From Eledone cirrhosa (lineage: Eukaryota), in assembly GCA_964016885.1 (NCBI GenBank), contig OZ024745.1:95046001-95110000 (forward strand): a stretch of DNA of 64,000 bases, in the 5' to 3' direction. Each line of letters begins with the position of its first letter. Position 1 is the stretch's first letter. This document shows, piece after piece, positions 33,456 through 38,497 of this stretch. The translations under genes were made by a program, and so were the position numbers. The notes beneath the pieces are model-generated. The model saw only the letters and a list, made by a program, of their open reading frames with translations. It made no database searches and had not been told where the DNA came from.

Positions 33456-34600
33456 TTCAAATTCGGTAGCCGTTTGCAAACAAAGCCTGCTTTGTGTCTC
33501 CCTATTTATATACATATAATTTAATATATTAAAGTACAACAGGATAATTGGAATATAGTGCAGTATAGTGAAACTATGGAGGTGTTCACTGTATAAACAT
33601 ATCTCCAAGTTTACCTTTAGCATTCTCTAGCCATAACCCTTTAGACTACATTAAAACTATATTAAAACATAACGACTGTTGCTTAAAAAAATCCGCATGA
33701 ATATTTTAAAGTATTAATTAAAAATAAACACATTTATAACTTCATACATAGGATACCAAGTGCAGGCATTATAAAAATAGAAACACGATTTGTAGCACAA
33801 TTCTATACGTGCAATTTATCATATTTAATCATTTTAGAAATATAATTCTTAGATTAAAATTTCATTATAGAACACTTTCTACTTCATTATCAAAAATACG
33901 TTTTCTTCTCTGTTTTCGATGTTTCGTATAGAAATGAAATTAGAGAGTTAAAGATTATTTGAAAATATCTTAATTAATGGTATTCCTTAATTGTTAGTTT
34001 AATCAGATTTCAAATCACTCAAGAAATAAAAGATTTTTGCCTCAAGGTACAATTTTATAATATTCATATATCTGCATTTGATCGCTGATAAAAGTTTGTA
34101 CACGTGAGTGGCTAATATTGAAGCATCAATATCAGATTTTTCGATCTCATTGAGTATTGCATTTATTAGAACCCCAAACTAGTGATGCAGGTGTTGAGAG
34201 TACGTTATATTTAATTCACATAGCTTTGTGCACTACGGTTATTAAATATTAATTTTAATCCAGGATTTAGCCAGACCCATAGCTTATAAAGTAGAGTCAG
34301 GACTCTTAACGACGGAAAAAGAAGGTGGCATCGGCCGCTTATGTAAGCATTATGGCATTTGCAAAATAAATGAAAAATAACAGCACGATGTTCATGGAGG
34401 ACCTATTCTACAAGTGTATCAACATTTATTTACAATGATATATATATATATATATATATATATATATATATATATGTGAATATAGACATAGAATATTCGA
34501 AAATATTCTGTATGTTTATAATAAACATTTTGAAGACCTAATCGCTATAGAATAGAATACGTCACGTATTACAATTAGATTCTCGATAAAAGCAAGGGAA

Positions 34601-34643
34601 GTAATCTACGCGTTTCATTCTCGTTAGAAATCATCAGGACTAC
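34601..34643 (-). ncRNA. Same hammerhead on the - strand (copies at 34601, 34911, 35221, 35531)
   Basis: Exact reverse complement of 36010-36052, repeating every 310 bp. Confidence 0.92.
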
Positions 34644-36009
34644 ATATCCAGTGCTTTTATCGAGAATGACACAGCTAGAGACTTATAGAATACTTAGCTG
34701 TGTACAGGAACTGGTTTGAAAGAGCGGTTGCCGGTCCGGCAGAAATTAGAAATTGGAATAAATGCTCTGAAATAGCGATATATATGTGAATATAGACATA
34801 GAATATTCGAAAATATTCTGTATGTTTATAATAAACATTTTGAAGACCTAATCGCTATAGAATAGAATACGTCACGTATTACAATTAGATTCTCGATAAA
34901 AGCAAGGGAAGTAATCTACGCGTTTCATTCTCGTTAGAAATCATCAGGACTACATATCCAGTGCTTTTATCGAGAATGACACAGCTAGAGACTTATAGAA
35001 TACTTAGCTGTGTACAGGAACTGGTTTGAAAGAGCGGTTGCCGGTCCGGCAGAAATTAGAAATTGGAATAAATGCTCTGAAATAGCGATATATATGTGAA
35101 TATAGACATAGAATATTCGAAAATATTCTGTATGTTTATAATAAACATTTTGAAGACCTAATCGCTATAGAATAGAATACGTCACGTATTACAATTAGAT
35201 TCTCGATAAAAGCAAGGGAAGTAATCTACGCGTTTCATTCTCGTTAGAAATCATCAGGACTACATATCCAGTGCTTTTATCGAGAATGACACAGCTAGAG
35301 ACTTATAGAATACTTAGCTGTGTACAGGAACTGGTTTGAAAGAGCGGTTGCCGGTCCGGCAGAAATTAGAAATTGGAATAAATGCTCTGAAATAGCGATA
35401 TATATGTGAATATAGACATAGAATATTCGAAAATATTCTGTATGTTTATAATAAACATTTTGAAGACCTAATCGCTATAGAATAGAATACGTCACGTATT
35501 ACAATTAGATTCTCGATAAAAGCAAGGGAAGTAATCTACGCGTTTCATTCTCGTTAGAAATCATCAGGACTACATATCCAGTGCTTTTATCGAGAATGAC
35601 ACAGCTAGAGACTTATAGAATACTTAGCTGTGTACAGGAACTGGTTTGAAAGAGCGGTTGCCGGTCCGGCAGAAATTAGAAATTGGAATAAATGCTCTGA
35701 AATAGCGATATATATGTGAATATAGACATAGAATATTCGAAAATATTCTGTATGTTTATAATAAACATTTTGAATACGTGACGTATTCTATTCTATAGCG
35801 ATTAGGTCTTCAAAATGTTTATTATAAACATACAGAATATTTTCGAATATTCTATGTCTATATTCACATATATATCGCTATTTCAGAGCATTTATTCCAA
35901 TTTCTAATTTCTGCCGGACCGGCAACCGCTCTTTCAAACCAGTTCCTGTACACAGCTAAGTATTCTATAAGTCTCTAGCTGTGTCATTCTCGATAAAAGC
36001 ACTGGATAT

Positions 36010-36052
36010 GTAGTCCTGATGATTTCTAACGAGAATGAAACGCGTAGATTAC
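36010..36052 (+). ncRNA. Type I minimal hammerhead ribozyme, representative copy (+ copies start at 36010, 36320, 36630, 36940, 37250, 37560, 37870)
   Basis: GTAGTC-CTGATGA-tTTCT aacg AGAAt-GAAAC-GC-GTA-GATTAC. Stem I GTAGTC/GATTAC, canonical core, palindromic stem III ACGCGT, GUA triplet. Stem I is extended by a perfect 16-bp duplex, 35986-36001 with 36059-36074. Confidence 0.92.
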
Positions 36053-38497
36053 TTCCCTTGCTTTTATCGAGAATCTAATTGTAATACGTGACGTATTCTA
36101 TTCTATAGCGATTAGGTCTTCAAAATGTTTATTATAAACATACAGAATATTTTCGAATATTCTATGTCTATATTCACATATATATCGCTATTTCAGAGCA
36201 TTTATTCCAATTTCTAATTTCTGCCGGACCGGCAACCGCTCTTTCAAACCAGTTCCTGTACACAGCTAAGTATTCTATAAGTCTCTAGCTGTGTCATTCT
36301 CGATAAAAGCACTGGATATGTAGTCCTGATGATTTCTAACGAGAATGAAACGCGTAGATTACTTCCCTTGCTTTTATCGAGAATCTAATTGTAATACGTG
36401 ACGTATTCTATTCTATAGCGATTAGGTCTTCAAAATGTTTATTATAAACATACAGAATATTTTCGAATATTCTATGTCTATATTCACATATATATCGCTA
36501 TTTCAGAGCATTTATTCCAATTTCTAATTTCTGCCGGACCGGCAACCGCTCTTTCAAACCAGTTCCTGTACACAGCTAAGTATTCTATAAGTCTCTAGCT
36601 GTGTCATTCTCGATAAAAGCACTGGATATGTAGTCCTGATGATTTCTAACGAGAATGAAACGCGTAGATTACTTCCCTTGCTTTTATCGAGAATCTAATT
36701 GTAATACGTGACGTATTCTATTCTATAGCGATTAGGTCTTCAAAATGTTTATTATAAACATACAGAATATTTTCGAATATTCTATGTCTATATTCACATA
36801 TATATCGCTATTTCAGAGCATTTATTCCAATTTCTAATTTCTGCCGGACCGGCAACCGCTCTTTCAAACCAGTTCCTGTACACAGCTAAGTATTCTATAA
36901 GTCTCTAGCTGTGTCATTCTCGATAAAAGCACTGGATATGTAGTCCTGATGATTTCTAACGAGAATGAAACGCGTAGATTACTTCCCTTGCTTTTATCGA
37001 GAATCTAATTGTAATACGTGACGTATTCTATTCTATAGCGATTAGGTCTTCAAAATGTTTATTATAAACATACAGAATATTTTCGAATATTCTATGTCTA
37101 TATTCACATATATATCGCTATTTCAGAGCATTTATTCCAATTTCTAATTTCTGCCGGACCGGCAACCGCTCTTTCAAACCAGTTCCTGTACACAGCTAAG
37201 TATTCTATAAGTCTCTAGCTGTGTCATTCTCGATAAAAGCACTGGATATGTAGTCCTGATGATTTCTAACGAGAATGAAACGCGTAGATTACTTCCCTTG
37301 CTTTTATCGAGAATCTAATTGTAATACGTGACGTATTCTATTCTATAGCGATTAGGTCTTCAAAATGTTTATTATAAACATACAGAATATTTTCGAATAT
37401 TCTATGTCTATATTCACATATATATCGCTATTTCAGAGCATTTATTCCAATTTCTAATTTCTGCCGGACCGGCAACCGCTCTTTCAAACCAGTTCCTGTA
37501 CACAGCTAAGTATTCTATAAGTCTCTAGCTGTGTCATTCTCGATAAAAGCACTGGATATGTAGTCCTGATGATTTCTAACGAGAATGAAACGCGTAGATT
37601 ACTTCCCTTGCTTTTATCGAGAATCTAATTGTAATACGTGACGTATTCTATTCTATAGCGATTAGGTCTTCAAAATGTTTATTATAAACATACAGAATAT
37701 TTTCGAATATTCTATGTCTATATTCACATATATATCGCTATTTCAGAGCATTTATTCCAATTTCTAATTTCTGCCGGACCGGCAACCGCTCTTTCAAACC
37801 AGTTCCTGTACACAGCTAAGTATTCTATAAGTCTCTAGCTGTGTCATTCTCGATAAAAGCACTGGATATGTAGTCCTGATGATTTCTAACGAGAATGAAA
37901 CGCGTAGATTACTTCCCTTGCTTTTATCGAGAATCTAATTGTAATACGTGACGTATTCTATTCTATAGCGATTAGGTCTTCAAAATGTTTATTATAAACA
38001 TACAGAATATTTTCGAATATTCTATGTCTATATTCACATATATATCGCTATTTCAGAGCATTTATTCCAATATATATATATATATATATATATATATATA
38101 TATATGTATGTGTATATATATATATATATATATATATATATATATATATATATATATATATATATATATATATATATGTATGTGTATATATATATATATA
38201 TGTATGTGTATATATATATATATATATATATATATATATATATATATATATATATGTATGTGTATATATATATATATATGTATGTGTATATATATATATA
38301 TATATATATATATATATATATATATATATATATATATATATATATATATGTATGTGTATATATATATATATATATATATATATATATATATATGAACGGT
38401 TTGACCTAACTCCGCTGTAGCATCGGTTTCAAGACGAAAACATCTTGTTGTGCAGAGCTAGCTCAAAATGTATATATATATATATATATATATATAT

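Follow-up and report, generated by a model that had tools for sequence, protein, structure and literature searches.

Opposed arms of a hammerhead repeat in Eledone cirrhosa suggest that wide-spread retrozyme arrays are each written from both sides of a DNA break by a Penelope-type enzyme

Metazoan non-LTR retrozymes have been described as non-coding tandem units of 170–400 nt, with a GC content under 45% and one type I hammerhead ribozyme each (Cervera & de la Peña, 2020, PMC7229834; Li, Clavereau & Pollet, 2026, 10.64898/2026.07.22.740005). A model in which an RNA circle is copied into tandem cDNA, with Penelope-type elements (PLEs) as helpers, is in print in these studies as a proposal. PLE insertions carry an inverted 5′-truncated copy and a tail of 30–40 bp, usually at one end only (Craig et al., 2021, 10.1101/2021.04.23.441226), and a PLE protein has been reported to cut and extend both strands, with two internal start sites that delimit the tail (Frangieh et al., 2024, PMC11167929).

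The window, that is the whole stretch of 64,000 nucleotides that was analysed, contains a 310-bp repeat (GC about 34%) that resembles these retrozymes in size, base composition, lack of coding capacity and possession of one type I hammerhead per unit. A preliminary description of this DNA had reported an array of 11 hammerheads without an ORF between positions 34471 and 38071. The 310-bp period and the 11 CTGATGA..GAAAC-GC-GTA cores are indeed present there, the units are 100% identical (0 mismatches between them), and the longest ORF starting with Met in the array encodes only 30 amino acids. An ORF scan of unit and array found neither the RT nor the GIY-YIG ORF of an autonomous PLE, and a pol III B box was not found in the 310-nt unit. 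The count of 11 is thus correct, but the repeats do not form a single array: they make up two opposed arms, with four cores on the minus strand and seven on the plus strand, and the cleavage sites previously quoted (36046 and 36356) belong to the plus arm only. The outer ends abut (TA)n directly on both flanks, and LTR structure is absent. The array is one recent insertion of a non-coding hammerhead repeat family, in two opposed arms within (TA)n, and its parts are as follows.

34438..34467, no strand: left (TA)n target, overlapping the unit's own ATATATAT up to 34475
34468..35774, minus strand: left arm, 4.22 units with 4 hammerhead cores; its outer (RNA 3′) end is site A, unit position 139
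35773..35774, no strand: head-to-head junction with 2-nt microhomology, unit positions 73 and 37
35773..38071, plus strand: right arm, 7.42 units with 7 hammerhead cores; its outer end is site B, unit position 165
35986..36074, plus strand: one full type I hammerhead domain, predicted cleavage after 36046
35986-36001/36059-36074, plus strand: 16-bp duplex of this domain
36010-36015/36047-36052, plus strand: bulged stem I
36016-36022, plus strand: hammerhead core
36023-36036, plus strand: stem II, with a U·U base
36037-36041, plus strand: GAAAC, followed by the palindromic ACGCGT
36047..36356, plus strand: predicted 310-nt monomer, from cleavage site to cleavage site; 36047 is position 1 of the unit coordinates
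38046..38071, plus strand: one-sided "tail" between start sites A and B, beginning with GCTATTTCAGAG
38072..38393, no strand: right (TA)n tract with reiterated variant motifs

The predicted cleavage after 36046 was placed from the standard hammerhead consensus. The GCTATTTCAGAG at the tail start is invariant in all seven aligned sequences (the window unit and six older relatives). In the (TA)n flanks, both here (38072-38393) and at three other loci (L031, L032 and L035), multiple copies of one interrupted motif often occur, in some cases on either side of the array, which gives the impression that the target was reiterated during insertion.

The stem I proposed previously (GTAGTC/GATTAC) and its 16-bp duplex both fold as claimed; stem I includes one G·U pair, and is followed by a bulged three-pair extension and then by the duplex. 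A complete type I hammerhead is found in 11 of 11 full units. None of 200,000 shuffled monomers matched the hammerhead descriptor, and the circular monomer folds with a z-score of −4.0, with none of 100 shuffles as low. The Rfam search of the window did not recover the ribozyme, giving no match at the gathering score (Hammerhead_HH9 reached only 15.8 bits, E 0.64, with a cut-off of 52). Stem II opens with a U·U mismatch, as does the helix II base of the axolotl HHR_Amex2, and only about one pair of stem III is possible in the monomer, while full pairing of its ACGCGT palindrome would be possible only between two ribozymes (−9.5 kcal/mol, computed); the axolotl HHR_Amex1 similarly has a palindromic tetraloop on a one-pair helix III (PMC7229834). 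Given the U·U in stem II and the one-pair stem III, the ribozyme is predicted to be weak as a monomer. Axolotl hammerheads with the same two oddities cleave well only as dimers, and the axolotl analogues were 6–22% cleaved in one hour (PMC7229834). In vitro, insertion by the PLE Poseidon PAc did not require the hammerhead (Frangieh et al., 2024, PMC11167929), and among Xenopus dimers cleavage was absent in 8 of 9 (Li, Clavereau & Pollet, 2026, 10.64898/2026.07.22.740005); both observations count against the reading favoured below.

Other hammerhead and retroelement traces are present in the window. A second hammerhead repeat family, with a 421-bp unit, is located at 1545-2352 and about 12420-13380 (both minus strand); its stem II has the U·U base of the 310-nt unit, its stem III is a palindromic ACTAGT, and its setting is also (TA)n. 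Yet another hammerhead family, similar to the 310-nt unit in its core and stem II, has left short fold-back stubs at 39926-39893 (minus strand) and at loci L059, L095, L103, L112 and L144. A relaxed scan returned hammerhead-like cores at 38689, 39450 and 41425 (minus strand) and at 50398 (plus strand). The segments 54167-57568 and 49347-49688 (both minus strand) are presumably remnants of frames that encoded the reverse transcriptase of non-LTR retrotransposons.

Dispersed copies in (TA)n had been predicted, and these were found in abundance. In the 3.0 Gb of genome searched, the 43-nt hammerhead has 4,033 exact copies by pattern search, a 16-mer common to most unit variants has 17,700 exact matches, 1,001 ends at position 165 (site B) are joined to (AT)n, and there are 1,182 ends at site A; the reversed-pattern controls all gave 0. 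At 9.5 units per sampled locus, the 17,700 matches correspond to roughly 1,900 insertions in (TA)n. All sampled loci except the window come from one contig (C1). Older relatives, with units of roughly 310–325 bp, account for 4,110 further pattern matches. In an alignment of 10 family members, both partners have changed in 18 of the 28 hammerhead pairs; kinship among the sequences inflates the shuffle control here, and the window row is shifted by one column within stem I. Core pair 3-8 is C-G in four members and U-A in six. The palindromic stem III is also present in several older relatives. Among the older relatives L167-L196, L033 and L101, many possess a U3-A8 core (TTGATAA) and a longer palindromic stem III, and many terminate in (TA)n close to site B.

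The 310-nt repeat is genuine, and represents a young retrozyme family that belongs to a known class: the genome evidence supports the retrozyme reading of the preliminary description, and the fold covaries in older relatives. The class and the circle/PLE model are already published; in the literature searched I found no description of the family, no cephalopod retrozyme and no two-armed retrozyme footprint, though supplements and repeat databases such as Repbase and Dfam could contain a prior listing. Two differences from described retrozymes are that 24 of 57 Xenopus families were matched to repeats, whereas no pLTR relative was found for the window family in 46 PLE loci of one clade or in 30 loci of older relatives, and that RNA and cleavage have been demonstrated for the coral, mussel and axolotl retrozymes, whereas this family is known here from DNA alone. 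A reading of expression from runs X1 and X2, in each of which the unit forms one 340-nt contig, was dropped on a depth control: on 26000-30640, the repeat-to-unit depth ratio in X1 resembles that of the DNA-like run X3, and the X1 and X2 contigs therefore say nothing on expression.

In contrast to the retrozymes described in the literature covered, the family forms paired head-to-head arrays whose outer ends in (TA)n are fixed but unequal. The head-to-head order was seen at 83 of 91 loci and the opposite order at none, and all 80 loci with both outer ends in view show one A end (unit positions 127–140) and one B end (162–171). Site B is about 30 nt beyond site A in the unit, and the tail measures 26–33 nt. 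Because 80 of the 91 loci had been chosen on a B end, two further samples were examined. In the window and 10 hammerhead-picked loci, 10 of the 10 two-armed ones are A+B. The 20 A-picked loci comprise seven with a single arm and 13 with two; in each of the 13 the far end is B, and 12 of them are independent, one being a duplicate of an earlier locus. The inner ends, counted with nine of the 91 loci left out, are scattered over the unit: 47 of the 82 junctions show 1–6 nt of microhomology, one shows 16 nt, 10 are blunt and 24 contain inserted bases. Only one of 164 inner ends maps to positions 1–3, next to the cleavage junction, and three map to 305–310; an apparent pile-up at position 1, considered as run-off at a cleaved 5′ end, proved to be an alignment edge effect and was gone on exact mapping. 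Where the arrays cross the cleavage junction, 958 of 961 crossings are the reference or a locus-wide variant, and no ligation scars were found at this junction, the 1-nt insertions nearby being locus-wide.

I consider this two-armed structure to be the strongest evidence on mechanism. The A+B footprint fits a PLE tail and two-strand priming, with one start site per strand, and suggests that wide-spread arrays were each written from both sides of a DNA break by a Penelope-type enzyme. The PLE link made previously is thus supported, by the head-to-head order, the constant A+B ends and the agreement of all 13 A-picked two-armed loci. Like the Hydra-clade PLEs, the family has an inverted 5′-truncated copy, a one-sided tail, (TA)n targets and a hammerhead near the end, but its 310-nt unit codes nothing, its tail is 26–33 nt long and both of its arms are multi-unit arrays. 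With the Poseidon PAc in vitro system it would share the cutting and extension of both strands at AT-rich DNA and the two tail-defining internal starts; the predicted protein dimer of PAc (PMC11167929) may be listed as a further likeness. The PAc start is an AC-rich stem-loop without target homology, whereas site A of the window unit falls within ATATATAT, a sequence with the potential to pair with the target. In the text covered, PMC11167929 reports neither a single start site for each strand nor circular templates.

An amplification at the DNA level, by unequal exchange, extrachromosomal circles or fold-back repair, of a satellite or PLE pseudo-LTR remnant carrying the hammerhead as a passenger appears improbable. 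Li et al. (10.64898/2026.07.22.740005) propose local tandem amplification of pLTR, and at L050, L051 and L072 variants are repeated at intervals within the arrays, which shows that some later spread of variants inside arrays has taken place at the DNA level. Such processes are however difficult to reconcile with fixed A+B outer ends in (TA)n at every two-armed locus with both ends visible, and with the roughly 1,900 dispersed sites, the strand-biased A>G changes described below and the covarying stems. That read correction or misjoining produced the unit identity and the inversion as an assembly artefact is barely credible. Some local errors do exist, as L202 duplicates L057 beside an N gap (G000:C1, about 56.26 Mb), where an identical arm junction occurs twice, probably through assembly duplication. 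Against a general artefact stand the locus-specific haplotypes, the kept single-unit variants, the distinct inner junctions and the constant A+B ends, and an independent-looking DNA run carries the unit at very high depth.

The preliminary description had further proposed that the template consists of exact 310-nt monomers. The 91 loci hold 30 haplotypes, a random pair of loci matching with p = 0.12, while the arms of one locus differ in haplotype only at L059 and L124, in a comparison that is informative only for arms of at least one unit. Since the arms are nearly always of one haplotype, both derive as a rule from one RNA. Variants were polarised against the window unit. Of 240 single-unit variants, 115 that fell at an arm end or within a junction cluster were dropped before counting. 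Of 31 array-wide variants, 14 are private to one locus, in up to 25 of 25 units, and this is counted for a monomer bottleneck. Three loci differ: the two arms of L115 share one mosaic with its unit order, in which two X units precede Y, and L068 and L211 each carry one single-unit variant at equal rank in both arms and nowhere else. Because unit order is shared at these loci (three of about 95 two-armed ones), their templates were multi-unit, and a monomer circle is impossible there. The template was thus not always a monomer.

A possible, though rather unlikely, reading keeps the two-ended PLE priming but takes the usual template to be a long linear multimer that has escaped cleavage, with a hammerhead that acts slowly or only at a later stage. 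Such a multimer would be transcribed from a clean source array or arise by RNA-to-RNA copying. L115, L068 and L211 require a multi-unit template, the ribozyme is predicted to be weak as a monomer, as the partial cleavage of its axolotl analogues would suggest (6–22% in an hour, PMC7229834), the main PAc substrate is unprocessed RNA (PMC11167929), and arrays of at least 25 units exist. However, the 65,271 nt covered by both arms contain 46 unshared single-unit variants (52 rows less four of L059 and two of L124), versus one shared singleton and one shared mosaic. At a load of 0.12 per unit, about 25 shared variants would be expected by hand arithmetic, but about one if the sources were much cleaner; as the expectation depends on the cleanliness of the source array, the linear template is only weakened by this count. 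It would also need a one-unit bottleneck, then amplification, to account for recurrent A>G changes in all units of both arms. In the arms of L059 and L124, 276A>G is present in seven of seven units of one arm and in only the inner two of six of the other, and 51T>A is confined to a single arm; the difference could reflect two templates, editing while the RNA was being copied or a subsequent conversion.

The spectrum of the variants is also uneven. Among array-wide substitutions A>G accounts for 9 of 28, and among those of single units for 10 of 107 (p = 0.005). Array-wide T>C number only three, and all nine array-wide A>G are within predicted duplex (p = 0.013). The change 276A>G is found on four backgrounds and 259A>G on three, and three A>G sites in all recur on different backgrounds. 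In view of this enrichment in duplex and this recurrence, I read array-wide A>G as the trace of A-to-I editing on a monomer from which many copies were subsequently made. The A-picked set adds two more array-wide A>G, one paired and one (158) unpaired. Selection for G·U-tolerant changes may add to the excess. Stem changes that keep pairing amount to seven of seven among array-wide variants versus 5 of 24 among single-unit ones (p = 0.0003), and these array-wide changes, together with the covariation, support a constraint on the ribozyme; as five of the seven are A>G, the signal of editing cannot be counted separately from that of selection. Core variants number 0 of 31 array-wide and 5 of 125 single-unit, a difference too small to count.

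Autonomous-type PLEs co-occur with the 310-nt repeat in the same genome. With the window's broken PLE frame as the query, 38,573 first-look PLE RT candidates were obtained, of which 150 were scored. Among these is a young PLE family, 97–99% identical over 1 kb (12 copies compared), with the Hydra-clade marks DKT and CxCX5C as well as YRDD. It is located in (TA)n and contains a hammerhead of its own; its two ends, spaced by about 90 nt, lie one per side at L151 and L157. No DNA similarity to the unit was detected in 46 Hydra-type PLE loci (one clade sampled), and the young Hydra-clade PLE is consequently a candidate class and not an established partner. No PLE frame was found beside 30 loci of older relatives, and two PLE frames gave no match in Pfam. 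A twin start hairpin was considered and rejected, as a weak 3-bp hairpin follows site A and a different hairpin follows site B. In the window itself, the broken Hydra-type PLE (DKT, YRDD) is located at about 16640-20000 on the plus strand, with inverted terminal copies, and an endonuclease-like fragment at 46794-47216.

I therefore favour, as fairly probable, a non-LTR retrozyme that a PLE enzyme copies from both cut strands, mostly round one monomer circle; the window array was likely written by a PLE reverse transcriptase/endonuclease from both ends of a DNA break. The arrays would first be transcribed, and the transcripts would be cut after GUA, probably as dimers held by the ACGCGU palindrome, after which a host ligase may circularise the monomer, as axolotl and newt precedents suggest for both steps. 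A PLE protein, for which the Hydra clade is the candidate, would cut both strands in (TA)n, and cDNA would begin at A on one strand and at B on the other, as the observed end pattern indicates. Both polymerases would then copy one RNA, to judge from the shared haplotypes, across the cleavage junction for several units, presumably on a circle. Finally, the cDNA ends would be joined at random positions, often over 1–6 nt of microhomology, as seen at the inner junctions. In a minority of insertions the template would be an uncleaved multimer. Counted against the circle are the shared unit order at L115, L068 and L211, the arm differences at L059 and L124, the later spread of variants within the arrays of L050, L051 and L072, and the single arms of 7 of 20 A-picked loci. 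Counted against the PLE partner is that, in the loci sampled, none of the autonomous PLEs resembled the unit in DNA sequence.

The return of animal retrozymes into DNA, through a circle, a PLE enzyme and tandem cDNA, has been proposed and not demonstrated in the literature cited here, and the tandem and inverted structures of PLEs have been named as an open question (Craig et al., 2021, 10.1101/2021.04.23.441226). The youth, abundance and regularity of the 310-nt family make both open to test, with a defined template, two start sites, a target and a candidate clade for the enzyme. The family further suggests that RNA edits could enter the genome by the retrozyme route. I see an even chance that the two RTs of a PLE dimer are placed 30 nt from each other on a single 310-nt RNA circle, made by the ribozyme and edited by ADAR, which they roll around from both ends of the double-strand break. 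If this is true, each insertion would be a DNA record of circular-RNA retrotransposition, RNA edits included.
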